From the sequence record ON075799: a stretch of DNA of 64,000 nt, one strand, 5' to 3'. The notes beneath the pieces are model-generated. The model did no database searches and was not told the origin of the DNA. It was given only the letters and a program-made list of their open reading frames with translations. Made by a program: the position numbers and the translations under genes. This DNA is from Escherichia phage vB_EcoM_TH18. Positions 5,815 to 42,530 of this stretch are shown here, piece by piece; position 1 is the stretch's first letter; every line of letters begins with the position of its first letter.

Positions 5815-5893
5815 TGGTTGCGAGTATTGGAATCGAACCTGCAATCTTCAGGGTATGAACCTAACATGGTAAATCCATTTCCACCAATCTGCA
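5815..5893 (-). tRNA. degenerate tRNA-like element (anticodon-loop CAU; weak acceptor and T stems)
   Basis: Canonical T-loop GGTTCGATTCC, D stem and anticodon arm TTAGG-TTCATAC-CCTGA present, but T stem and acceptor have several mismatches. Confidence 0.3.
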
Positions 5894-5899
5894 ATAATT

Positions 5900-5975
5900 T
5901 GGTGTGACGGACAGGATTCGAACCTGTGACCACCTAGTCTTCAGCAAGGCACTCTACCAACTGAGTTACCGTCAC
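5900..5975 (-). tRNA. tRNA-Phe (anticodon GAA)
   Basis: Manual cloverleaf: acceptor GTGACGG/CCGTCAC, D arm ACTC/GAGT, anticodon loop CTGAAGA, T loop TTCGAAT, encoded CCA. Confidence 0.8.
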
Positions 5976-5980
5976 ATAAT

Positions 5981-6057
5981 TGGTGGGCGATGAGGGACTC
6001 GAACCCCCAAAATTCAGGTTCTAAGCCTGACATGTATACCAATTCCATCAATCGCCC
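5981..6057 (-). tRNA. tRNA with anticodon UAG (Leu-reading) but short variable arm
   Basis: Acceptor GGGCGAT/ATCGCCC, anticodon arm TCAGG-CTTAGAA-CCTGA, T arm GGGGG-TTCGAGT-CCCTC, CCA encoded; D stem has one mismatch. Confidence 0.55.
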
Positions 6058-6071
6058 ATCTATATTAACAG

Positions 6072-6263
6072 TTATGGTTTTCCACGATACACAGAAATAG
6101 TTTTCCCATTAGCATTGATAACATAAGCGGTCTGATCCTCAGACAAAAACACTTTTTGATCAATGCCGGAAATAGCTATAGACTTTTGATGAGCACAATA
6201 CCCAACAATTTTCCCACAAAAAATTTGTTCATCATTTGGAGAGACGACTTTAACTGTTAACAT
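6072..6263 (-). CDS. small hypothetical protein (63 aa) inside the tRNA cluster
   Basis: Start refined to MLTVKVV with RBS agagga 6 nt upstream; the longer ORF-track start would overlap tRNA-Pro. Confidence 0.45.
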   Translation of the reverse strand: MLTVKVVSPNDEQIFCGKIVGYCAHQKSIAISGIDQKVFLSEDQTAYVINANGKTISVYRGKP

Positions 6264-6305
6264 GGTATCCTCTGTACATTTCTGCTTTGATATGTTTATG
6301 TTTGT

Positions 6306-6383
6306 TGGTCTGTCCGGTTGGATTTGAACCAACGACCTGGTCATCCCAAGTGACCCGCGCTACCCAAGCTGCGCTACGGACAG
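6306..6383 (-). tRNA. tRNA-Pro (anticodon UGG)
   Basis: Perfect cloverleaf: acceptor CTGTCCG/CGGACAG, D arm GCGC/GCGC, anticodon arm GGTCA-CTTGGGA-TGACC, T loop TTCAAAT, CCA encoded. Confidence 0.85.
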
Positions 6384-6467
6384 AGAAATGTAGATTTTAA
6401 TTGTCCCAGAATCTACTAACTGGTATCGCTGGCTAGGTGATATCTGTGACTTGATTAAGTCAAGAAT

Positions 6468-6559
6468 TGGCGGTTCCTGAAGGATTCGAACCTTCGGTGG
6501 GGAGATTCATTCCCAACGGCTTAACAGGCCGTCACCATCGACCACTCGGTCAAAGAACC
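6468..6559 (-). tRNA. type II (long variable arm) tRNA with anticodon GUU; identity uncertain
   Basis: 92 nt; acceptor GGTTCTT/AGGAACC (one G-U), anticodon arm ACGGC-CTGTTAA-GCCGT, ~20 nt variable arm, T arm GAAGG-TTCGAAT-CCTTC, CCA encoded. Confidence 0.55.
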
Positions 6560-6568
6560 TGAATATTT

Positions 6569-6645
6569 TGGTGGATCTGGTTGGGGTCGAACCAACAATC
6601 TCTCGATTAAAAGTCGAGTGACTTAAACCATTTGGCTACAAATCC
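6569..6645 (-). tRNA. tRNA-Lys (anticodon UUU), weak D arm
   Basis: Acceptor GGATTTG/CAGATCC, anticodon arm CTCGA-CTTTTAA-TCGAG, T arm GTTGG-TTCGACC-CCAAC, CCA encoded; D stem poorly paired. Confidence 0.55.
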
Positions 6646-6663
6646 GTTAAATTATCTTTAAAA

Positions 6664-6691
6664 TAGCTAATTACTCGCACATAATTAGCTA
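6664..6691 (-). terminator. hairpin plus U-run (terminator-like) within tRNA cluster
   Basis: Inverted repeat tagctaatt...aattagcta followed on the minus strand by TTTTAAAGA. Confidence 0.3.
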
Positions 6692-6878
6692 TACGCAACA
6701 ACTCTCCAAGGAGAGCACACTAATGATCGATTACGATTATATGACTAAATTTAGACCATCATAAGTGTTTGGCTTACGCCAGTAAAGAGCGGACTGCTCT
6801 GGGGTATCGGTAAGATGGTTGCAGCCATCTACCGAAAAATCACACCAAGCAACTAAACAAGCTACATTAAAGATAACT

Positions 6879-6967
6879 TGGAGGAGGCTGACAGAATCGA
6901 ACTGTCACCATATCTCTACAGCGGGACTGGGTTCAAACCAGCTTGTGCACCATGCACCCCAGCCTCC
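6879..6967 (-). tRNA. tRNA-Ser (anticodon UGA), type II
   Basis: 89 nt; acceptor GGAGGCT/AGCCTCC, anticodon arm GCTGG-TTTGAAC-CCAGT, long variable arm, T arm GACAG-TTCGATT-CTGTC, CCA encoded. Confidence 0.7.
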
Positions 6968-7038
6968 AAAGATAGCCTCTGCCGAGGATATACACCCAAC
7001 AAAGGAGGCGCTCAGGTCAGAAGAAATCTGAGCCTTAA

Positions 7039-7132
7039 TGGAGGAAGATGCCAGACTTGAACTGGCACACCCATTTCTGGGTTACTATCTCCTTAGCAGG
7101 GAGATCCCTTACCAAATTAGGGTTAATCTTCC
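7039..7132 (-). tRNA. tRNA-Ser (anticodon GCU), type II
   Basis: 94 nt; acceptor GGAAGAT/ATCTTCC, 3-bp D stem, anticodon arm TCTCC-CTGCTAA-GGAGA, T arm GCCAG-TTCAAGT-CTGGC, CCA encoded. Confidence 0.75.
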
Positions 7133-7153
7133 AATACCTTAGTAATTAAAAAC

Positions 7154-7243
7154 TGGTGGAGAAGGAGAGAATCGAACTCTCAAGCCGTTTTACCAGTCAG
7201 CACATTTCCAATGTGCTTTCGTCGCCAATCGATTTGCTTCTCC
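7154..7243 (-). tRNA. tRNA-Ser (anticodon GGA), type II
   Basis: 90 nt; acceptor GGAGAAG/CTTCTCC, anticodon arm GCACA-TTGGAAA-TGTGC, long variable arm, T arm GAGAG-TTCGATT-CTCTC, CCA encoded. Confidence 0.65.
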
Positions 7244-7252
7244 GTTTTAACT

Positions 7253-7328
7253 TGGCAGGGGATGGTTGATTCGAACAACCGATCACGGGGTCAAAGCCCG
7301 TTGCATTAGGCCACTATGCTAATCCCCT
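7253..7328 (-). tRNA. tRNA-Gln (anticodon UUG)
   Basis: Perfect cloverleaf: acceptor AGGGGAT/ATCCCCT, D arm GCAT/ATGC, anticodon arm ACGGG-CTTTGAC-CCCGT, T loop TTCGAAT, CCA encoded. Confidence 0.85.
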
Positions 7329-7333
7329 TTTGC

Positions 7334-7410
7334 ACGAGAGTGAGGAATAGAACCTCTTAGTCACTGGTTTTGGAGGCCAGCCTTCACCCAGTGAAGTTAC
7401 GCTACTCTCA
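7334..7410 (-). tRNA. non-canonical tRNA-like element
   Basis: Good acceptor (TGAGAGT/ACTCTCG) and T-loop-like GGTTCTATTCC, but D and anticodon regions do not fold into standard arms; no encoded CCA. Confidence 0.3.
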
Positions 7411-7417
7411 TTAAAAA

Positions 7418-7975
7418 CTATTTTCGAAAAGGACTTATGAAAAATGCCAACATCACTCTCTCTCTTGAAAAAGCTCTGTCTTCAGGAACCACACTCTTCA
7501 GTTTCCAACCGACATAAATTCGCCAGTAAAATTGTTTTCCAAACAATCTAAAAGACGGGACAAACGCGAATACACCCCACGCATTGTCATTCCACATCAA
7601 CAAATAGCCTTGTTGGTTATCCTCCACATCAGAGCTTACATGGAGGTTTCCTTTCCACTTTGTCACAGATGTGATTTCACGTCCAAGTACGTGATAGGAG
7701 AAATTGTAGGCTTTATTTCTCCACAACCAAGCAACTCGTTGTAGGTAAACACCAAAACTTCCTATTTTACGGACTTCTTCCCATCTCTCTATGTGTCCTC
7801 TATCACCGTCTATAGGATTATCATATGTCTCCATCCACCTGAAAATATAAGGCAGATGCCCTGTCTTCTCATTATAGAACGGAACAACAAAAGGAGCCAG
7901 AATAACACAGAGAACCGACATAACTGGGTCAAGAGGTGCTAACAGGATCCACGATAAATATTTTAAGTATCTCAT
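7418..7975 (-). CDS. hypothetical protein (185 aa, hydrophobic N-terminus)
   Basis: ORF from six-frame track; start overlaps stop of upstream gene (ATGA). Confidence 0.5.
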   Translation of the reverse strand: MRYLKYLSWILLAPLDPVMSVLCVILAPFVVPFYNEKTGHLPYIFRWMETYDNPIDGDRGHIERWEEVRKIGSFGVYLQRVAWLWRNKAYNFSYHVLGREITSVTKWKGNLHVSSDVEDNQQGYLLMWNDNAWGVFAFVPSFRLFGKQFYWRIYVGWKLKSVVPEDRAFSRERVMLAFFISPFRK

Positions 7976-8202
7976 GCAGGATCAAGCCTAGATATAATGT
8001 ACTGGTTTAAATCTGAATATGGGAAGATACTTTCAAAGATAACCTGTTTAAATCTGAAGCCGCACAAACCGAAAAGTACCTTCTGACACTCACCAAAAGA
8101 GCAATCTTTACCAACTTTTATCACAACCGTATCGGCAATCTGCACACTTTCTATCTCTTTAGATTCATGATGCCGTACTATGATTACTTTAGAAACCATC
8201 AT
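7972..8202 (-). CDS. hypothetical protein (76 aa)
   Basis: ORF from six-frame track; translationally coupled to downstream gene. Confidence 0.45.
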   Translation of the reverse strand: MMVSKVIIVRHHESKEIESVQIADTVVIKVGKDCSFGECQKVLFGLCGFRFKQVIFESIFPYSDLNQYIISRLDPA

Positions 8203-8327
8203 ACTCGTCCATATTAAAGCCTTCTACTAAAGATAGTAGATGTCTAGGGTTGGACCGCAAACGCAACCCCATGGAATTTGTTACGGTCTTCAGTTGACCC
8301 AAGCGGATTTCATTGACATCTTTTAAC

Positions 8328-8402
8328 TGGAGCATCCAGAGGGTATCGAACCCTCGACTTCAGCTTGGAAGGCTGTAGTTTTCCCAATTAAACTATGGAT
8401 GC
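8328..8402 (-). tRNA. tRNA-Gly (anticodon UCC)
   Basis: Acceptor GCATCCA/TGGATGC, D arm GTTT/AAAC, anticodon arm (A)CAGC-CTTCCAA-GCTG, T arm GAGGG-TTCGATA-CCCTC, CCA encoded. Confidence 0.75.
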
Positions 8403-8407
8403 ATATT

Positions 8408-8483
8408 TGGTGGGAGTGGTAGGCTCTGCCCCTACGTCCTCTCGATTATCGGTCGAGCGATCTACTAACTGATCTACACTCCC
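8408..8483 (-). tRNA. tRNA-like cloverleaf with Ile-type anticodon GAU but non-canonical D and T loops and C at position 33
   Basis: All four stems perfectly paired, CCA encoded, but D loop AGTTAGTA lacks GG, T loop is GGCAGAG (no TTC), anticodon loop is CCGATAA. Confidence 0.5.
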
Positions 8484-8546
8484 AAACTGTACTGGCCCAA
8501 CAACCACGATTGGAGGGTATCGTCACACATCAAAGCCAGTACAGTT
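8484..8546. other. long perfect hairpin (13-bp stem, ~37-nt loop) between two tRNA genes
   Basis: aaactgtactggc (8484-8496) and gccagtacagttt (8534-8546) are exact reverse complements. Confidence 0.6.
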
Positions 8547-8551
8547 TTAGT

Positions 8552-8641
8552 TGGTGTGCCGTGATAGAGTCGAACTACCCGAGTCCCTTTCGAGACAGGA
8601 GATTTACAGTCTCCCCCGCTACCCCTACGGTCTAACGACAC
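8552..8641 (-). tRNA. tRNA-Tyr (anticodon GUA), type II
   Basis: 90 nt; acceptor GTGTCGT/ACGGCAC (one G-U), anticodon arm GGAGA-CTGTAAA-TCTCC, long variable arm, T loop TTCGACT, CCA encoded. Confidence 0.7.
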
Positions 8642-8642
8642 A

Positions 8643-8990
8643 TTAACCTTGTTTGAATTGAACAATATCCGTCGAGAACGGTTTAGCTGCCTTAATAGGT
8701 GCTTTTTCTGAGTTATCTTTTTCGAGTAACTCTTCGTTTTCCTCATCAAAGTAATCAGAAAGCATCTGCTCACCTTTCTCAATAACATAACGAGCTATAT
8801 TTTCTCTGATATTGTCTTTTGTATTCACATTCTTCATCAAATCCCTAAGAACCTGATGAGCTTCAGGAATCATTGCAATCAGATTCGTTTTTAAATCTAG
8901 GATATTTTTCTCTAACTGAATTGCATTAGATTCCTCTTTCAGAGGACGACCTTTTCCTCTTCTACGTTTTGTAAGCTGCTTAGTAGCCAT
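8643..8990 (-). CDS. hypothetical protein (116 aa, basic N-terminus)
   Basis: Start refined to MATKQLTKRRRGKG; the longer ORF-track N-terminus overlaps the tRNA cluster; sigma70-like promoter just upstream. Confidence 0.5.
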   Translation of the reverse strand: MATKQLTKRRRGKGRPLKEESNAIQLEKNILDLKTNLIAMIPEAHQVLRDLMKNVNTKDNIRENIARYVIEKGEQMLSDYFDEENEELLEKDNSEKAPIKAAKPFSTDIVQFKQG

Positions 8991-9009
8991 TTTAAAACCC
9001 CACTTAATG

Positions 9010-9039
9010 ATATTATCAAATAAAAACATATCTGTCAAG
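9010..9039 (-). promoter_or_regulatory. sigma70-like promoter (TTGACA, 18-nt spacer, TAATAT)
   Basis: Minus strand reads TTGACA...TAATAT shortly upstream of the ATG at 8990. Confidence 0.5.
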
Positions 9040-9075
9040 TGGTATTTTAACATATTTACCAAGAAATTGAAAGTT

Positions 9076-9152
9076 TGGAGCACGGTGTCGGACTTGAACC
9101 GACATATATCTGTTTTGCAGACAGATCCGTAACCAAATTCCAGCAACCGTGC
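9076..9152 (-). tRNA. tRNA-Cys (anticodon GCA)
   Basis: Acceptor GCACGGT/ACCGTGC, anticodon arm TCTGT-CTGCAAA-ACAGA, T arm GTCGG-TTCAAGT-CCGAC, CCA encoded; D stem weak. Confidence 0.65.
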
Positions 9153-9228
9153 AATAAGTACCCCAGGTAGAGAACCTATAGAGTGGGTCTTACGAGCCGC
9201 GCTGACGATTCTCAAGTTGGGGTTAATC

Positions 9229-9305
9229 TGGTCGAGGAGACAGGATTCGAACCTGTGACCTACGGCTTAGAAGGCCGCTGCTCTATCCAACTGAGCTACA
9301 CCCCG
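9229..9305 (-). tRNA. tRNA-Arg (anticodon UCU)
   Basis: D arm GCTC-AGTTGGATA-GAGC, anticodon arm GCGGC-CTTCTAA-GCCGT, T arm ACAGG-TTCGAAT-CCTGT, CCA encoded; acceptor has one mismatch. Confidence 0.7.
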
Positions 9306-9505
9306 AAAATAAGAATGCTTTATAGTGTATGGTTACTCAACCTCACTCCAACTTCCACAGTTGGTGCTCTACGAGCATGACTACGTTTGAAATCAACGTT
9401 GCGCACCGATAGCTTTCTCACGCATTGTATGCCTCATTCCCAACAAATGCTGATCAGACATTTATATCGAATAATATAAGCTAATACACTATAAAACAAA
9501 CTTGT

Positions 9506-9602
9506 GGCTGGGTGATGGAATCGAACCACCTATGTATTCAACGGCTTCCCCGTCTATTTTCAGGATTATAAATCCTCGCCCTTGCCAAAGGGCTTACCCA
9601 GC
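9506..9602 (-). tRNA. over-long (97 nt) tRNA-like element, anticodon arm ambiguous
   Basis: Perfect acceptor (GCTGGGT/ACCCAGC), D arm GCCC-TTTGGCAA-GGGC, T arm GGTGG-TTCGATT-CCATC; central region has only a 4-bp stem with loop TTTATAA and ~30 extra nt; no encoded CCA. Confidence 0.35.
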
Positions 9603-9604
9603 AT

Positions 9605-9679
9605 TGGTGCTCGCAGCAGGTTTCGAACCTGCAACCCCCTGCTTACAAGGCAGGTGCTCTACCGTTGAGCTATACGAGC
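9605..9679 (-). tRNA. tRNA-Thr (anticodon UGU)
   Basis: Acceptor GCTCGTA/TGCGAGC, D arm GCTC/GAGC, anticodon arm CCTGC-CTTGTAA-GCAGG, T arm GCAGG-TTCGAAA-CCTGC, CCA encoded. Confidence 0.85.
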
Positions 9680-10044
9680 AATAAGACATTGCTTCCGATT
9701 AACAGCCTTGAGGCTTTACAGACCATATCTTGTGAGCCATAACCTGTGCCAAGGATTTCAGATGATAAACGAAATTTTATCTTTCAAGAGTCAACTTTCA
9801 AGTTTCATCTTTTACATTTAACCATTGACCTTTATTGTATGAACTTTTACTTAGTGGAAACAACAAGGCATCTTCGTGTGCCTCGCTGCATCTATGTCCT
9901 GTATTATCCTCATACATATACGATACATGGTGGGGGATATTTAACCTCCAACCCCCAGGAGGCAAGATGATGTAAACTTCGTTAATCAAAAGCAATGTTT
10001 TAAATTTCAAAACAAAGGAACGATAATGATATTATCAGAGCCTT

Positions 10045-10692
10045 TTAGAGAGAGTGCTCAATCTCAATTTCTGTCTTAGCGTTTGACTCAGACAACGCAA
10101 AATCAACGTTAGACAAGAAATCTTCAATCTCTTCTTCAAGAGAACGAATCTTAGAAGCCAGTTCAAGAGGATCCACAACCGATGGTGTGTTCATCATTCG
10201 AATAGGAGCTTCCACAGTCTTAATCTGCTCTGCATCTGGCGCTTTATCACGTTGGATATATGGCGCTCTTGCATTTTCAAGTTTATCTTCCAGAGATTTT
10301 TCTTCTTTTGCCAGAAGAAGCTGTGCAGAAGCACGCTGTGCACAAAGTTTGTTTAACAACTCTTGTTTAAAGCAAATCGTCCGTTTGCGTTCGATTGCCT
10401 CAGCAACTGTCATAGACACATTACCAATTTTGACAATTGTCTCAGCATTAGACTTAACAATTTTTGCTTTCAGTTCATCACGCACTGCCAAGAGGTCTTG
10501 CAGACTTTGATAGTCGTTGATCGCAGATTTCTTAAAATCATCAACAGAGCCGATATAACCCGGAATCTTACAATTATTCTCAGTTCCTTTTGCAATCTTA
10601 ATACAATCAAGATTGTAGATACGCTTATTGATCTTATCTTCAATTTTAGAGATAGAAGCAAGTGCACGAGTTACGGAAATCTTAGTAGACAT
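10045..10692 (-). CDS. hypothetical protein (215 aa, charged coiled-coil-like)
   Basis: ORF from six-frame track; charged, heptad-like composition. Confidence 0.55.
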   Translation of the reverse strand: MSTKISVTRALASISKIEDKINKRIYNLDCIKIAKGTENNCKIPGYIGSVDDFKKSAINDYQSLQDLLAVRDELKAKIVKSNAETIVKIGNVSMTVAEAIERKRTICFKQELLNKLCAQRASAQLLLAKEEKSLEDKLENARAPYIQRDKAPDAEQIKTVEAPIRMMNTPSVVDPLELASKIRSLEEEIEDFLSNVDFALSESNAKTEIEIEHSL

Positions 10693-10765
10693 GCGATCTC
10701 TCCTATGTAAATCAGCTTTGATAAAGTAACTATCCAGAAAAACAAAAACTATGTCAAGAAAAATT

Positions 10766-10957
10766 TTAATCTTTTACAGCATCTTTTATAGAATCACAAA
10801 GATCTTGAACAACATCAGATGTCGGTGACAAAATCATCTCGTCGGCTGCTGCTATAGCATCTGATGCTAAATCAACAAACGGAGTTGTTACCGCAGAAGT
10901 CACTTCAACAGCCGTTATTGTTACTTCGCTTGCAATCTTAAGCAAAGATCCTATCAT
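10766..10957 (-). CDS. hypothetical small acidic protein (63 aa)
   Basis: ORF from six-frame track in an otherwise gene-free gap. Confidence 0.4.
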   Translation of the reverse strand: MIGSLLKIASEVTITAVEVTSAVTTPFVDLASDAIAAADEMILSPTSDVVQDLCDSIKDAVKD

Positions 10958-11033
10958 AATCTCAACCCTCCTGAATATCCGTGATTCCCTTTATTTAACG
11001 ACGCTGGCTCACGGTGGCACTCTCGTCAATAAA

Positions 11034-11357
11034 CTATTTTTTAGTTTTCTTACCGTTTTCTACAGAAATGCTTGTTTTCTGTTTCGCTTCTCGTTCGCGC
11101 TTTGTTTTCCCAGTGCGAATACGATATGAAGCAGAAATAACTTCACCACCAATGACACGAGACACAGATTCGTAATACATTTCAGTATTACCGTCTTCAT
11201 CTTTGCGTTTTTTCAGAACTGCTACAGTTTGCGTTTTACCACCAAGGCGCACATCGTGCGGTGCAGAATGTGTCTGCGTGGATTTTGATCCAAACTGAAA
11301 AGGTTGCTTTATCGCCTCGATAGCTGACACCTTTTTAGCAGACTGTTTCTTAGCCAT
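11034..11357 (-). CDS. hypothetical basic protein (107 aa)
   Basis: Start refined to MAKKQSAKK with strong RBS ggagga upstream; lysine/arginine-rich. Confidence 0.55.
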   Translation of the reverse strand: MAKKQSAKKVSAIEAIKQPFQFGSKSTQTHSAPHDVRLGGKTQTVAVLKKRKDEDGNTEMYYESVSRVIGGEVISASYRIRTGKTKREREAKQKTSISVENGKKTKK

Positions 11358-11408
11358 TAAGTTTTCTCCTCCGAAAACAATAAACATAGTTTATTTCGTG
11401 TGCCACAT

Positions 11409-11485
11409 TTGGTGGCCCCTGCTGGACTTGAACCAGCGACCAAGCGATTATGAGTCACCTGCTCTATCCAACTGAGCTAAGGGGC
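11409..11485 (-). tRNA. tRNA-Met (anticodon CAU; initiator/elongator/Ile2 not distinguished)
   Basis: Acceptor GGCCCCT/AGGGGCC, D arm GCTC-AGTTGGATA-GAGC, anticodon loop CTCATAA, T arm GCTGG-TTCAAGT-CCAGC, CCA encoded. Confidence 0.8.
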
Positions 11486-11818
11486 CGAATCTCTTAATAT
11501 GAGATGATATTATCCTGTATGATCTACATTGTCAAGAGATATTTTAAAATTTTATACATCCCAGTTTTCTTCTTGATAACAACCTTCCCCGAATCCAACT
11601 TCTTTTTCAAAATCAATACCTTTTTTCATACATTCCTCACATTAACAGATATTGTTTTCAAACTCAAAACGTAAAATACGAACTCTGTCAATACACTGCT
11701 GTAATCTACAAAGCAACAACTCAACTTGTTTATGCGTCTCTTCAGTATACGTTTTGGTCATCTTGCTTTTCTCCGTGATCTTTTCATTGCAGCTTCTGCA
11801 CGTCTTTGTTTACGATTT

Positions 11819-18064: not shown

Positions 18065-18895
18065 ATGACAAGTATTTTACACACGACAGGTATTTTACCA
18101 CACTATCAGAAGGAATATTCTTTCCCTGATTTATCTGGGGATATGTTGCAAATATACGACAAAGTGCAAGGCGAAGTGTCGGAGCTACAATTTAGTTCAG
18201 ACCCTGATGATGAGCAAGAGTTTGATAAACAGATTTGTCGTGTAGAAAACGAGCTTATAGAGCTACAATCATTAGCCAAATCAACAGATATCGAAGACTT
18301 AAGGCGACACGTTGAGAATCTTGAAAATTTAGTGTTCGGGCTTTCGCAAGCTATTATAAACATTGGTGAAATTGCTAAAATTGCCTCTGACAAGTTGCCA
18401 GACAACACAGAAGATATTGAAGAAGCGTTGCAGAATATCTGCTATGAAGGAAGTTCTGCTCTCGGTTGTGAATGTAATCTAGGAAATGCTCTTGAAGAGC
18501 GTGGGTGGAACCTGTTCCAAAAAACTTTTGTTTATCGTGTTATTGGTGGTGAGTTTCCTCGGCTCATACAACTTAATGCCCTTTTTGGAAACAGCCAGGG
18601 TGATAATATTGCATTAGGTATTGATGGCTGGTTCTGTTTAAGAGGTAAAGAATTAGCATTTTGTTGTGGCGATGATGTGTTAATTCTCAATGCTTATAAA
18701 CCAGGTGTTGAAATAACAACAAAATTAAATGGTAAGTCCACTAAATTTCACACCAGAGAGTTGGAAGATATTTTCATGGACATATTTGATCCTACAGAAG
18801 ACGAAATTCTTATGTATGAAATGACCAGTGGAAAAAGATATGATATTTTGTCGTGGAGAAATATTTTTGGCAAGAAGAGAAAGCCTGTAGCGTGA
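18065..18895 (+). CDS. hypothetical acidic protein (276 aa)
   Basis: Long ORF from six-frame track on the plus strand. Confidence 0.55.
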   Translation: MTSILHTTGILPHYQKEYSFPDLSGDMLQIYDKVQGEVSELQFSSDPDDEQEFDKQICRVENELIELQSLAKSTDIEDLRRHVENLENLVFGLSQAIINIGEIAKIASDKLPDNTEDIEEALQNICYEGSSALGCECNLGNALEERGWNLFQKTFVYRVIGGEFPRLIQLNALFGNSQGDNIALGIDGWFCLRGKELAFCCGDDVLILNAYKPGVEITTKLNGKSTKFHTRELEDIFMDIFDPTEDEILMYEMTSGKRYDILSWRNIFGKKRKPVA

Positions 18896-19158
18896 TATTT
18901 TATCACTGATATTTGTTTTCCCTGTGATATTTTTGTCACAGGGAAAGTTTCAATAGTGGATATTTTCTTGATACTTTAAATTCCTACCAGAAATTTAAAT
19001 TCTGTAAATTTAGAAAACTATTACTTATAGGCGTTTCGACACAATTTTGTTATGAAAGCCTTGTTTTTATATAAAAACCTGTTTTAGCATGGGTGGTAGG
19101 ATCACACTCCATACTACCTTTATTCCTACAGATGAGCATCTCCATGTTCGAAAACTCG

Positions 19159-19370
19159 GTTCTCGATCGAAAATTCATTTTCCAGATCGTATTTGCTCCT
19201 TACGGAGAAAATTTTTTAGGGCTACAAGTTTCAGTTCTCGATCGGTTTTTCGATTTCAAAATCGTATTTGTTTTTTCTTGCGAAATTTTTCGCACGCTCA
19301 GTTCTCGATCGAGTTTTCAAAATCGAAATCGTATTTGCTCTATAGTGCGAAAAAATTTTTATGGGTATCA
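19159..19370. repeat. three tandem ~67-75 bp repeats with internal dyads
   Basis: Units begin gttctcgatcg at ~19159, 19234, 19301 and share ...atcgtatttg...gcgaaa; internal palindrome tgcgaaatttttcgca. Confidence 0.75.
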
Positions 19371-19742
19371 TAATTCTATCACACACTTAAACGCAAAGCA
19401 ACATAAAAATTTTTGTTGAATGATAATCATTCTCATTTGCAGAATGACAGGTAGGATCAGTGTCTTATCCTCCCCCGTTGACCATCGTCGCCGTAGTTTG
19501 AAGTTTATAGCCGTTCTCGGCTTATCTCTTTGTTAGAGATAGATTACCATAATTGATAAAGAAAGCAAGCGTTAATTGTAATCTTTACGTTTCTTTACAA
19601 ATTTATTTTAGACAAACTACCGGCGATCGACCTTCCAACCAGCGCCCTGGTATGTTAGCCCCGCCTTTACGCCGTGGGGATGGCGTTGCCTCTTCTGTAT
19701 GTTAGGCATTATAAGCCCAATCCCTGGGCTTGTCAAACATTT

Positions 19743-20006
19743 TTATTTATTTTCTTGCCAGGTTAGGACACCTAACCAGAAATGGCAATCACCTTTCGCC
19801 CATTGTGGTATATTGCTTTCTTTCCCACCTTCCCGCGCCCAGGAATAACCGCCCGTGTAACTTTGTAATTGATAACTATCCTCGACCTTATAATCTGACA
19901 GGTTGAGAACTGTTTCTACCTTTAAGCCTGTTGCGCTCGCTACCTGGTGGATAGTTCCCCCTTGCCAGCCTAACGCGTGCATAAGGTGCATTGTGGTAGT
20001 GGTCAT
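19743..20006 (-). CDS. hypothetical protein (87 aa)
   Basis: ORF from six-frame track with gagga RBS upstream on the minus strand; isolated between plus-strand blocks. Confidence 0.45.
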   Translation of the reverse strand: MTTTTMHLMHALGWQGGTIHQVASATGLKVETVLNLSDYKVEDSYQLQSYTGGYSWAREGGKESNIPQWAKGDCHFWLGVLTWQENK

Positions 20007-39187: not shown

Positions 39188-40432
39188 TTAGAATAACATA
39201 TCCCTGCTAATTGCTTTACGAATAGCATCAATACGGGCTACTCGCACAGCTTCACCAATCTCTTTACCCTTCTTACCTTTTTCCAGAAGAGGGTTTGTGA
39301 TAGCTTTAGAATCAACTTTTGTCATAGCGTCATAGGCTTCCAACAAAATATGACCTTGAAGGTAAGGTTTATGCCTAAAATCACCACCTCTTCCTTTAGC
39401 ATCACAATAACATGCATCTGCAAGTGTGTAAACCTTCATTTTCTGATCAGCTTGTCCAGCAGCTTCAAATATTTTCATGATGCTTTTTGGTTTCAAACCG
39501 TTGTTACCATCTGTGGGAGAGATGGCGTGCACTTTTGTGTGATTTTCTGCAACATATTTTGCCGTGTCACGATAGATATTATAAATCTTTAACCTTTCGC
39601 ACAAAGATTGGATAACATCCGCACCAGCTTTTTCATGACCATGCAAATTACCATTGTTCTTGTAAGTTACAGCTTTGCCAAAATCATGGCAAAGCACAGC
39701 AAACTTGGTCAGTGGATCAGCTTCTAATTCATCGGCAACCCGTAACGCTAGAATTGTATGAGTGTAAGCATCCCCTTCTGGGTGGTGTTCTTTAGGTTGT
39801 TGTACACGACGCAGGGCTTCCAGTTCAGGAAGCTCGCCAATACGTCCCATATTGACAGCAAAAGATCTGAAATAATCACTCTTTAAGGCTTTCAACATTT
39901 CATTCCATTTACGCTCGGCGCTTATTTCTGCCAAAGAGTGTCGGTTGTCATAAGCCAGTTTAAAAGTCTCTGGGTGGATATGCCATTCTTCCCCAAGCTG
40001 GGCTTTAAATCTAAACAGGCGTAGAATACGTAACGGGTCTTCAATAAATGCCTGTGATGTATGACGTAATGTTTTAAGTCCTAAATCAACCTGGCCACCA
40101 AAAGGATCAATAATCTCACCACTGTCAACATCCATCGCCATGGAGTTGATGGTTAGATCTCTACGTGCCAAATCCTCTTCCAGAGTTACATCTGGGCTAA
40201 AGCATACCTCAAATCCTTTATGGCCTTCGCCTGTTTTTCTTTCTGTGCGTGCAAGAGCGTACTCTTCTTTTGTTTCTGGGTGAAGATAAACTGGAAAAGA
40301 TGCGCCAACTTGTGTGAACCCTCTTTTCAACATCTCTTCATGCGTAGCTCCAACAACAACATAATCACGGTCTGATAATTCACGACCCAATAATTTATCT
40401 CTAACCGCCCCACCTACCAAATATACCTTCAT
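39188..40432 (-). CDS. cca: tRNA nucleotidyltransferase (CCA-adding enzyme) with HD domain
   Basis: Start MKVYLVGGAVRDKLLG...DRDYVVVG (class II head) and HD-domain region; ATGA overlap with upstream stop. Confidence 0.85.
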   Translation of the reverse strand: MKVYLVGGAVRDKLLGRELSDRDYVVVGATHEEMLKRGFTQVGASFPVYLHPETKEEYALARTERKTGEGHKGFEVCFSPDVTLEEDLARRDLTINSMAMDVDSGEIIDPFGGQVDLGLKTLRHTSQAFIEDPLRILRLFRFKAQLGEEWHIHPETFKLAYDNRHSLAEISAERKWNEMLKALKSDYFRSFAVNMGRIGELPELEALRRVQQPKEHHPEGDAYTHTILALRVADELEADPLTKFAVLCHDFGKAVTYKNNGNLHGHEKAGADVIQSLCERLKIYNIYRDTAKYVAENHTKVHAISPTDGNNGLKPKSIMKIFEAAGQADQKMKVYTLADACYCDAKGRGGDFRHKPYLQGHILLEAYDAMTKVDSKAITNPLLEKGKKGKEIGEAVRVARIDAIRKAISRDMLF

Positions 40433-40701
40433 TTCTTCACCCACATGTTCATATAATTAACAATATCTTTTATGGTTCTCTTGCCGTCCAGTGGATAAAC
40501 CATGTCATCGCTCATCCCACCGTGTTTTAGCATTGCTACCAGCCTAGTATATACCCCTTTTGGTCTTTTGCAAGTTCTTTTCTTCCATTTATGACCGTCT
40601 GGGGAGTACTCCTTATCTTCAAGAGAGATATGAAGTATATCTCCTATAAACTCTTTTGCCTGTGTGCTGTAAAGTGGACGGTAGAATATGTAGAATTTCA
40701 T
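40429..40701 (-). CDS. hypothetical protein (~90 aa)
   Basis: Start tentatively MKFYIFYRPLY; stop overlaps cca start. Confidence 0.45.
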   Translation of the reverse strand: MKFYIFYRPLYSTQAKEFIGDILHISLEDKEYSPDGHKWKKRTCKRPKGVYTRLVAMLKHGGMSDDMVYPLDGKRTIKDIVNYMNMWVKK

Positions 40702-40760
40702 CGCTTGCTCCTTTGTTGTAATAACAATACCAGTGCAAGCCACCTGTGTCAACACATAAA

Positions 40761-40785
40761 GAAAAACCCGCTAAAAAGCGGGTTA
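40761..40785 (-). terminator. rho-independent terminator (hairpin usable in both directions)
   Basis: aacccgc-taaaaa-gcgggtt flanked by A/T runs. Confidence 0.6.
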
Positions 40786-40790
40786 ATCTC

Positions 40791-41072
40791 TTACCATGTT
40801 ACAAATATGTTTATAGATGTGCCTTGTTTTGTTGGTTGATAGCTAATAATATCCACCATGAAACCACCACCACGAAGATCGCCAACAATATGAGGCAGGT
40901 AATCACCCATTTCCTCCGGGAACTGTAGTGACATACCCATTCCAAATAGACCTTTCTTTGCACATTGGCTTATCCCGTTTACTATCTGGTCGTACAGTTC
41001 CACCAGAGATTTTGGGGTATCCTTCTTTGACTTGTTCGCTATCTCTCTCATTTTGCTGGCGACATTTGCCAT
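40791..41072 (-). CDS. hypothetical protein (93 aa)
   Basis: Strong RBS aagaggtaaaga upstream; overlaps the 3' end of the methyltransferase ORF in another frame. Confidence 0.5.
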   Translation of the reverse strand: MANVASKMREIANKSKKDTPKSLVELYDQIVNGISQCAKKGLFGMGMSLQFPEEMGDYLPHIVGDLRGGGFMVDIISYQPTKQGTSINIFVTW

Positions 41073-41583
41073 CTTTACCTCTTAAAAAATAGAAAGGCTT
41101 CAAATTAAGGGTGTTCTTTTTGTCCCACACATACCATGCATACCCGCTTCCATCTGTCTTACCATCCTCTGTAAAAGATGGTCTTTGAGAAAGTACAAGC
41201 AGAGATGTTGGGGGATTATCTTGCCACCACTCCCACCTTTTCATACTTTCAAGAAAACCAAGACGTAGAAGCATGATAACGACATCAGCATCACGTAGAG
41301 CTTTCTCAACAAACTCTTGAGCCAGTGAGTATGGAGGGTTAGAGATTATGATGTCTGTGTGATTATACTCTGTTGTCAGATAATCAACACCTTGGCGTAT
41401 TTCTCCCCAAGCACTTCCGATTGGTAGAAAATTATAAATCCTACCGGAAGCTCTGCACGGCTCCATATATTTCTTTTTCATATCTATGGGGATGACTTCC
41501 AACAGGGCTTCAACAGCCCATACTGGGGTTTCATACGTGTCGTACTCTCTCCGATCACCCTTCCTTTTCAGAGGTGCTACCAT
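40903..41583 (-). CDS. DNA N6-adenine methyltransferase
   Basis: Motif IV DIIISNPPY; the last ~55 residues are low-complexity and overlap the next gene, so the true 3' end is uncertain. Confidence 0.65.
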   Translation of the reverse strand: MVAPLKRKGDRREYDTYETPVWAVEALLEVIPIDMKKKYMEPCRASGRIYNFLPIGSAWGEIRQGVDYLTTEYNHTDIIISNPPYSLAQEFVEKALRDADVVIMLLRLGFLESMKRWEWWQDNPPTSLLVLSQRPSFTEDGKTDGSGYAWYVWDKKNTLNLKPFYFLRGKDGKCRQQNERDSEQVKEGYPKISGGTVRPDSKRDKPMCKERSIWNGYVTTVPGGNG

Positions 41584-42530
41584 CAGTTACCAACCTTTTC
41601 GATAGTTTCTTTCAAAATATCTTCGGAAACACTAAGAATTTGATTCAGTAGAATGTCTCTTTTGTGTGGTATTACTCTGGTCTCATTCTCACCATATTGC
41701 AGGTTGTTTAATTGCGCAAGAATTTCTTTTAGCTCGTCAACGTTAAAACCATCAAAATCACGGTCGTTCAAAGTTGACATATTGAAACTAAAATTCTCGC
41801 CACCAACGGTAATGTTCATAAGCATTTCTTGTACCTCACCCTTAGGAACGGCATCTATGTTTTTGGGTGTGACATTCTTAACCACTGTTGTTTTTGTGGT
41901 TTTTAGGCCAGTTACATACCGCAAACCTTGCTGTTCTCTTCGGATATTCTCTTTATCCAGTAAAGCGGCTTCAGTGCGTACCAAAATATCTTCTTCTGTC
42001 AGCCAAACTTCCCCACCACCTTTAATGGTTTCCATTTCTTCAGGTGTTAGCACATCCTTATAGAAATGATCGAAGACACGATCAAAGTAGTCTTTTTGGA
42101 ACACAGCTTGGCGGTAAATGTTGGATCCGTCCCCGCCTATCCAACCCTGATAGTTATGGAACATAAAAATTGTCAATGGTGAGACAGTTCTGCGCTCACA
42201 TGCCAACCATAATACTGTTCCTGCTGAACACACTTGGCCTTCTGCATGAACAATAACCATGGCCTGACTTTCTCGGATGGCGCTAACGTATGCCATAGCA
42301 ATAGCAACATCCCCACCCAATGTATTTATAATAATGCGTACTGTATCCTCTGGATTGGCTGCACGAATTGTTTGTAATCGCTCTTGGTGGTCTTCCAACC
42401 AATGCATCTCATTAACGTATATGACATGATTATTAGCATGAGCACGATATGTAAAAACGTTAGCAGTCTCTACACGGTTAACATTAAAACCATTATTCAG
42501 TTTTTGCATTACAACCTTCTCCGTTTTCAA
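41583..42530 (-). CDS. ClpP-family (S14) serine protease-like protein
   Basis: TLGGDVAIAMAYVSAI and GQVCSAGTVL resemble the ClpP fold and active-site serine region; 315 aa. Confidence 0.55.
   Translation of the reverse strand: MKTEKVVMQKLNNGFNVNRVETANVFTYRAHANNHVIYVNEMHWLEDHQERLQTIRAANPEDTVRIIINTLGGDVAIAMAYVSAIRESQAMVIVHAEGQVCSAGTVLWLACERRTVSPLTIFMFHNYQGWIGGDGSNIYRQAVFQKDYFDRVFDHFYKDVLTPEEMETIKGGGEVWLTEEDILVRTEAALLDKENIRREQQGLRYVTGLKTTKTTVVKNVTPKNIDAVPKGEVQEMLMNITVGGENFSFNMSTLNDRDFDGFNVDELKEILAQLNNLQYGENETRVIPHKRDILLNQILSVSEDILKETIEKVGN

Follow-up and report, generated by a model that had tools for sequence, protein, structure and literature searches.

Does the methyltransferase gene of Escherichia phage vB_EcoM_TH18 genuinely continue into the gene that follows it, or has its 3′-end been displaced by a frameshift or a sequencing fault? 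The question is raised by a 64,000-nt stretch of DNA from this phage (sequence record ON075799; hereafter the window), in which the open reading frame (ORF) of a putative N6-adenine DNA methyltransferase (MTase) overlaps the next gene, here called DS (downstream), on the same strand. A preliminary description of the sequence had put this out-of-frame overlap at about 170 nt and had left two alternatives, namely a genuine long overlap or an enzyme with a frameshifted or truncated C-terminus, with a possible fault at 41060–41090. The ORF coordinates give an overlap of exactly 170 nt. The two genes very probably form a real same-strand overlapping pair that is maintained by selection, in which the tail of the MTase was born once by overprinting. 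The pair is a new, well-supported and conserved example of this known phenomenon.

The source phage region belongs to Avunavirus (Vequintavirinae), and every gene in this part of the window lies on the minus strand (Table 1). The MTase ORF consists of a catalytic core and a C-terminal extension of about 59 aa, which runs through the ribosome-binding site and start codon of DS, and then through DS codons 1–56 in the −1 frame of DS. Seen from the MTase, DS lies in the +1 frame, so that position 3 of a given DS codon and positions 1–2 of the following one together form an MTase codon. The stop codon of the MTase spans DS codons 56 and 57, the latter (GAT) encoding the D in the DYLPHIVGDLRGGGF motif. 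Two further features given in the preliminary description hold: the start of DS at 41072 is preceded by a strong ribosome-binding site, read from the sequence as AAGAGG with a 5-nt spacer, and the tail is indeed low-complexity; it is also hydrophilic.

An open frame of this length is not expected by chance. Across 75 proxy genes of the window, stops in this alternative frame occur at 0.107 per codon, which gives a probability of about 0.002 for 56 open codons, and only 1/75 of these genes has its first 56 codons free of stops in this frame. Synonymous resampling of DS codons, weighted by local codon usage, kept the MTase frame open in 0.08% of draws for the window, where 5.2 stops were expected. 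Per lineage, the probability of an open frame by chance is 0.0000–0.039, with 2.6–5.5 stops expected and 0 seen.

Selection on the overlap was examined in a DNA set of 17 long-form loci and three controls with a non-overlapped DS. A stop appears in the MTase frame when a third-position T in DS is followed by AA, AG or GA; sites before one of these pairs at which the DS codon is able to end in T are termed stop-prone. Among 13 non-redundant full-length lineages, T occupies 0/151 stop-prone sites in the overlap. It is present at 62/327 of the sites in this stretch that are not stop-prone (Fisher p = 1.6e-11), at 19/60 of the stop-prone sites that DS has outside the overlap (p = 4e-12) and at 14/29 equivalent sites in the three non-overlapping orthologues (p = 3e-13), although the lineages are related and these p-values overstate their independence. 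When only five deep lineages are retained (DS identity 43–78%; 43–54% in 9/10 pairs), the counts are 0/65 versus 23/121 (p = 3e-5; the other p-value is 2e-4). At least 21 changes have occurred at the stop-prone sites; every one was among A, C and G, and none produced T. The non-overlapping orthologues carry 3–6 real stops in the same frame.

The end-point of the extension is equally constant. The terminal T|GA is kept in 15/15 full-length lineages, and the DS codon that supplies its T (GGT, AAT, AGT, CTT, CGT, GTT, CAT or GCT) encodes 8 amino acids. This codon precedes the D (or N) of the DY[LCI]PH motif in DS; the controls have TCA, TCG or ACG there. Past the MTase stop, the same frame would enter a Trp-rich hydrophobic stretch, which is a plausible reason for ending at this point. 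Within the overlap, third positions of DS are rich in G and poor in T (A.28, C.19, G.44, T.09) relative to the rest of the gene (.17,.30,.15 and.38, respectively), which is the pattern expected of first codon positions in a hydrophilic coding frame. The T-poor bias reaches even those sites that are unable to form stops (19% T vs 47%). A general avoidance of TAA, TAG and TGA, or a general depletion of T at third positions, was considered and rejected: the third frame over the same stretch has 5 stops in the window and 3–7 across lineages, and the prone sites are far more depleted. Stop avoidance, a fixed stop and biased first positions show that selection keeps the tail frame of the MTase open.

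The extension is shared by a defined group of relatives. Across a very large collection of protein clusters, the lengths of MTase homologues are bimodal, with 20 clusters of 225–227 aa, 6 clusters of 194–220 aa and the rest of 159–186 aa; the short homologues end directly after PFYF[LV]. Long forms (about 26 protein clusters) are found in Avunavirus, Seunavirus and Mydovirus, and in many metagenomic relatives. Seunavirus SPLA5a and Mydovirus Ro1 encode MTases of 226–227 aa whose last 56 codons lie over a DS orthologue in the same relative frame, and at each of the 17 long-form loci in the DNA set DS is in frame +1 and has a strong ribosome-binding site. An extended C-terminus shared by homologues, which the preliminary description had named as its refuting observation, is borne out for length and end-point, and only weakly for amino-acid sequence. 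In a neighbour-joining tree of the core, the long forms make up one clade with the truncated forms scattered inside it, and a single origin follows from this. One short form nested in the long clade comes from a 721-nt low-coverage contig, and another locus, L100 (P0029), is too short to inform.

The ancestral arrangement can be read from lineages outside this clade. In Vequintavirus and at locus L021, DS is present in the other relative frame and the MTase ends within 4–20 nt of the DS start. The Vequintavirus enzyme is, unlike that of the window, 177 aa long and without a tail, its overlap with DS is just 4 nt (ATGA), and its DS orthologue has 5–6 stops in the frame that is open in the window phage. 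Since DS exists there without the overlap, its N-terminal half must be the older component and the MTase tail the overprinted novelty. DS is absent from the sister group (P0042 type), whose MTase bears its own short basic tail, with a terminator behind it.

Natural truncations of the tail are found in two metagenomic relatives, L093 and L096, whose MTases of 194 and 205 aa result from a T at stop-prone sites. The former also has AGG GAT in place of the canonical terminal T|GA, a loss to be expected when translation no longer reaches the distal tail. In another relative, an HNH endonuclease gene (PF13392; L094, 1640–2128) is inserted immediately 3′ of DS.

The core to which the tail is attached is a methyltransferase by several lines of evidence. 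It matches PHROG 799 (“DNA methyltransferase”, E 3.1e-80); no Pfam family at E <= 0.01, no NCBIfam match and no PDB match by sequence were found. Its score against TIGR01712 is 13.4 bits, with a cut-off of 97, which places it outside the Dam / D12-class and phage_N6A_met. A tblastn search with the MTase returned 562 phage records, and the Vequintavirus enzyme is 60% identical over residues 1–167. The motifs EPCRASG (residues 41–47) and NPPY are invariant in 27 sequences. AlphaFold2 predicts a class I methyltransferase core with pLDDT 75–94 across residues 20–171, and the best PDB matches by Foldseek include HsdM, PacII-M and CamA (E 1e-4 to 1e-2, TM about 0.45, 10–13% identity).

GATC methylation, toxicity in E. 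coli and triggering of the retrons Asa1 and Squ1 have been shown for the N6-adenine MTase of the Vequintavirus phage Bas51, an enzyme in which the changes D69G, D79G and T83P cause loss of function (PLoS Biol 2025, PMC12548924). The Vequintavirus orthologue of the window enzyme has D69, D79 and T83, followed by NPPY (N84–Y87); the counterparts in the window are D67, D77 and S81 (Ser for Thr). The same gene is labelled “putative N6 adenine methyltransferase” in the records of Bas50, Bas57 and Bas58. The Bas51 MTase and the window enzyme appear to share an orthologous core, the same motifs and the same ClpP-like/MTase/DS synteny, and because of this orthology the window enzyme is probably a GATC N6-methyladenine (m6A) methyltransferase. 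The window contains 248 GATC sites, with 220 ± 14 expected, so the site is not depleted.

With γ-class MTases (the Type I HsdM of EcoKI and StySJI, PacII M, and CamA), the phage enzyme has in common the class I S-adenosylmethionine fold and the order of motif X, motif I, motif IV and the NPPY loop. The likeness is at the level of the fold only: the phage core is about 167 aa long and has neither a target-recognition domain nor a specificity subunit. Dam-type enzymes (E. coli Dam, T4 Dam; TIGR01712) probably share the GATC target, judging from the Bas51 orthologue, but they are a different family, and the phage enzyme has NPPY and not DPPY.

The tail would have the character of a flexible appendage. 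It is hydrophilic and predicted to be disordered (pLDDT below 50 in AlphaFold2), and its sequence includes ISGGTVRPDSK and the C-terminal SIWNGYVTTVPGGNG. In 16/20 full-length clusters the proximal tail is basic (net +1 to +5; K+R 6–11 of the first 28 residues), and in the same clusters the distal tail is acidic and Gly-rich (net −3 to −6). The proximal 26–52 tail residues are retained in 6/6 truncated variants. Unrelated short basic MTase tails exist in sister lineages.

These observations suggest the following course of events. The starting point would be an ancestral catalytic core (about 167 aa), an orthologue of the N6-adenine MTase that acts on GATC in Bas51. A single loss or bypass of its stop beside the downstream gene would have let translation run on in the −1 frame of DS and given rise to a tail of about 59 aa. 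A single ClpP-like/MTase/DS mRNA would now be read in two frames across the 170 nt. Ribosomes translating the MTase would cross the Shine-Dalgarno sequence and ATG of DS and would stop at the TGA just before the most conserved part of DS, while those translating DS would initiate internally at AAGAGG-N5-ATG. The tail is probably translated. The tail appears to matter as a flexible hydrophilic appendage in which length and composition count, and not the exact sequence. Its most likely role would be to modulate the DNA binding, stability or activity of a toxic minimal enzyme without a target-recognition domain. Such a role is favoured because length and end-point are conserved, because the basic proximal cluster is kept in the truncated variants, and because sister lineages have short basic tails. 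More speculatively, the tail could be a de novo regulatory module, either a DNA tether or a degron for the phage ClpP-like protease, that tunes the dose or timing of a retron-sensed toxic MTase. If so, the phage–host arms race would have drawn in a peptide that arose from out-of-frame reading of an adjacent gene.

Besides the relatedness of the lineages, several points weigh against this account. Orthology with the Bas51 enzyme is deduced from the agreement of residue numbers and from how sister BASEL phages are annotated, and in Bas51 a 177-aa orthologue without the tail suffices for GATC methylation (PMC12548924). Six of the 26 long-form clusters have premature stops (194–220 aa), so at least the distal half of the tail is dispensable. 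The tail sequence is poorly conserved, with no site-specific peptide constraint detectable, and its charge is largely forced by the K/E/N/D/A-rich N-terminus of DS. Extra silent-site conservation of DS was not found in the overlap (61% inside vs 66% outside). As silent-site identity is not raised and the tail aligns poorly, the constraint would act on openness, length and composition rather than on specific residues.

The main rival is a genuine overlap in which translation itself is selected, either to tune initiation at DS or to keep the mRNA unfolded or protected, with the tail peptide as a by-product. MTase ribosomes would have to cross the initiation region of DS and its first ~55 codons. 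The barely conserved tail sequence and the absence of added silent-site constraint fit this explanation, as does the presence of the DS Shine-Dalgarno sequence inside the MTase ORF in every lineage. The ATGA overlap of Vequintavirus also couples both genes, and some translational link between MTase and DS is therefore ancestral. Passage of ribosomes through the start region, however, would leave some 40 more open codons and the constant end-point unexplained, and DS is already provided with its own strong ribosome-binding site. The G-rich, T-poor first positions, seen even at sites unable to form stops, point instead to selection on the encoded residues. A role confined to translation is accordingly unlikely, though it fares better than the alternatives below.

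Neutral read-through, in which the stop was lost once and the open frame has since persisted by inheritance and chance, is strongly disfavoured. It would agree with a low-complexity, disordered and fast-evolving tail (residue differences between the window and Av-05 are 8.5% in the tail and 2.4% in the core), with the existence of truncated variants and with active orthologues that have no tail. It does not account for the absence of stops from 15 lineages with DS identity down to 43%, each of them expected to carry several, nor for the failure of any recorded change at a stop-prone site to produce T. The stop position kept across eight amino-acid contexts, and the stops in the same frame of the non-overlapping orthologues, also speak against it.

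Marginally less probable still is an effect restricted to Avunavirus. At the ancestral C-terminus, the heptamer T_TTT_TTA, in the zero frame of the MTase, fits the −1 slippery pattern X_XXY_YYZ, and the −1 frame ends 4 codons on. Slippage there would let some ribosomes end at ...FFKR*, producing a short isoform beside the 226-aa form, and would be compatible with the overprinted tail. The heptamer is, however, found in Avunavirus only, being absent from Seunavirus and other genera; no RNA structure was found downstream of it (minimum free energy −12.1 kcal/mol, z = +1.1), and the shifted product would bring no gain. Programmed −1 frameshifting as a general mechanism was rejected, as the site is unconserved and structure-less and the shifted frames stop at once.

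Two fusions of the MTase with DS were also rejected. A prfB-like +1 shift at the MTase stop, which would join the tail to DS residues 57–93, was suggested by the +1 position of DS at this point; the preceding codon is GGG, GAA, GCT or others, and no conserved slippery codon exists. A fusion upstream of the DS start is excluded in the window, where the DS frame has a TAA four codons before the ATG.

As regards a fault at the junction, the region is 100% identical in Escherichia phages 18-1-2, 19-1-2 and 24-2-1 (Chinese records) and 95% identical in Av-05 (a Mexican isolate), so that the 681-nt ORF is present in four independent records. The T6 run at the end of the core is identical in the window, in Av-05 and in the three Chinese records, and both alternative frames at the run reach TAA within 2–4 codons. 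Between the window and Av-05 there are 5 differences in the overlap, of which 5/5 are silent in DS and 5/5 change an amino acid in the MTase tail. The junction reads TTT TAT TTC CTG GAG GGA in Seunavirus SPLA5a, TTT TAT TTT TTG GAG GGA in Mydovirus Ro1 and TAT TAC TTG GAG in locus L091; in genera other than Avunavirus, TTTCCTG, TTACTTG or the like stands where the T6 run would be, without loss of the long ORF. Because the junctions of SPLA5a and Ro1 differ and a long MTase is nonetheless retained, the T-run is not the cause of the long ORF. A sequencing error or true frameshift mutation at the T6 run (T TTT TTA), which would make the tail a pseudo-extension of an enzyme of ~166–170 aa, can be ruled out on the strength of the independent isolates and of genera that have the long ORF without any T-run (Seunavirus, L091), even though homopolymers are prone to errors and the loss of one T would give TTT TAA and an end at ...KPFYF, the normal C-terminus of the family. 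Of the two alternatives in the preliminary description, then, the genuine long overlap stands and the frameshifted, truncated or faulty C-terminus falls.

DS itself is a real gene with its start correctly placed. Full-length DS is present in the DNA of 189 phage records, Vequintavirus among them, and in every related lineage GGAGG, GAAGG or AGAGG lies 5–9 nt before the start. The possibility that DS is not real, or starts later, was rejected in view of this strong Shine-Dalgarno sequence at the first start and of orthologues that exist without the overlap. The AlphaFold2 model is a small α/β fold (pLDDT 77), with no significant PDB fold match; no Pfam or NCBIfam match was found. DS has no coding sequence in the records of 18-1-2 and Ro1, and is given as a 39-aa fragment in Av-05 and as a 52-aa fragment in SPLA5a. 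Among the 5.8 billion clusters of a protein collection only 7 are of DS, as against the 189 phage records that encode it, and metagenome gene callers skip the gene. This systematic annotation loss is caused by the overlap. GenBank already lists the 226-aa MTase ORF. It does not show the overlap, since in the records of the clade DS is either absent or reduced to 39–52 aa. The consequence for annotation is that gene callers keep the 226-aa MTase and drop or shorten the 93-aa DS.

Overprinting in viruses has been reviewed (PMC3494269, PMC8227390), and same-strand overlaps that arise through stop-codon loss have been described (PMC3887535, PMC2268670). The present pair resembles viral overprinted genes in its out-of-frame dual coding, with a younger frame that is disordered, composition-biased and faster-evolving and an older frame (DS) that is more constrained. 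It differs from them in that the new frame extends an existing enzyme and yields no separate protein, and in that it occurs in a double-stranded DNA phage of 120–150 kb, with no obvious pressure for genome compression. In a survey of 338 prokaryotic genomes, no real co-directional overlap of >60 bp was found (2008, PMC2478687). Like the overlaps in that survey, the one described here is co-directional, exceeds 60 bp and results from an upstream gene that surpasses its orthologues in length; unlike them, it shows an extension whose length and end-point are conserved across a clade, together with avoidance of stops. Outside small viruses, real same-strand overlaps of >60 nt are a great rarity, and they are usually taken for errors by annotation pipelines. 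With its ancestral state, single origin, truncation variants and signatures of selection, the locus offers a tractable natural model of the birth and retention of a de novo peptide by overprinting, and the MTase orthologue offers easy read-outs, namely GATC methylation (by nanopore), toxicity and retron triggering.

Table 1. Positions of the features described, numbered over the 64,000 nt of the window.
Feature	Position	Strand	Remarks
ClpP-like protease gene	41583–42530	−	upstream of MTase; Pfam CLP_protease, E 3e-10
MTase ORF	40903–41583	−	226 aa, 681 nt; NPPY at residues 82–85 (nt 41329–41340)
MTase catalytic core	41083–41583	−	residues 1–167; motif X YETP, motif I EPCRASG, motif IV NPPY
T6 run	41084–41089	−	end of MTase core, TAT TTT TTA
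T_TTT_TTA heptamer	41084–41090	−	MTase zero frame
MTase C-terminal extension	40906–41082	−	residues 168–226, from RGKDGKCRQQNERD to VPGGNG
DS Shine-Dalgarno sequence, AAGAGG	41078–41083	−	5-nt spacer to ATG; inside MTase ORF, coding part of L-R-G
DS gene	40791–41072	−	93 aa; ATG at 41072–41070; PHROG 12158 / 15143
Dual-coding stretch	40903–41072	−	170 nt
MTase stop, TGA	40903–40905	−	last base of DS codon 56 (GGT) and first two of codon 57 (GAT)
Intrinsic terminator hairpin	40765–40784	−	directly past DS stop; identical in Av-05; AACCCGCTTTTTAGCGGGTT then T-run
Terminator, then promoter-like sequence	40724–40784	−	TTGACA-17-TATTGT with extended −10 TG
Gene after DS	40429–40755	−	
CCA-adding tRNA nucleotidyltransferase gene	39188–40444	−	two genes downstream of DS
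ORF-poor intergenic region	18896–19742		about 850 nt
Direct repeat 1	19147–19217		about 70 nt
Direct repeat 2	19222–19292		about 70 nt
Direct repeat 3	19289–19359		about 70 nt
Cluster of tRNA genes	5815–11486	−	16 tRNA genes

The start of the MTase and the stop of the ClpP-like gene share 1 nt (TGATG), and the ClpP-like gene occupies the same position relative to the MTase at all related loci, in conserved synteny. The terminator hairpin past DS closes the ClpP-like/MTase/DS transcription unit. Beyond it lies a promoter-like sequence serving the next gene, which is homologous to the gene directly after the methyltransferase in lineages without DS. A gene for a CCA-adding tRNA nucleotidyltransferase follows, and 16 tRNA genes are clustered elsewhere in the window.

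The window also contains an ORF-poor intergenic region with three direct repeats, which share 65–73% identity and each contain GTTCTCGATCGA and AAATCGTATTTG. An Rfam search of 18800–19800 gave no match. The region may be iteron-like, origin-like or regulatory. Five GATC sites lie within about 210 nt of it, as compared with a window average of one per 258 nt, and the region is possibly sensitive to methylation by the GATC-type enzyme of the phage.

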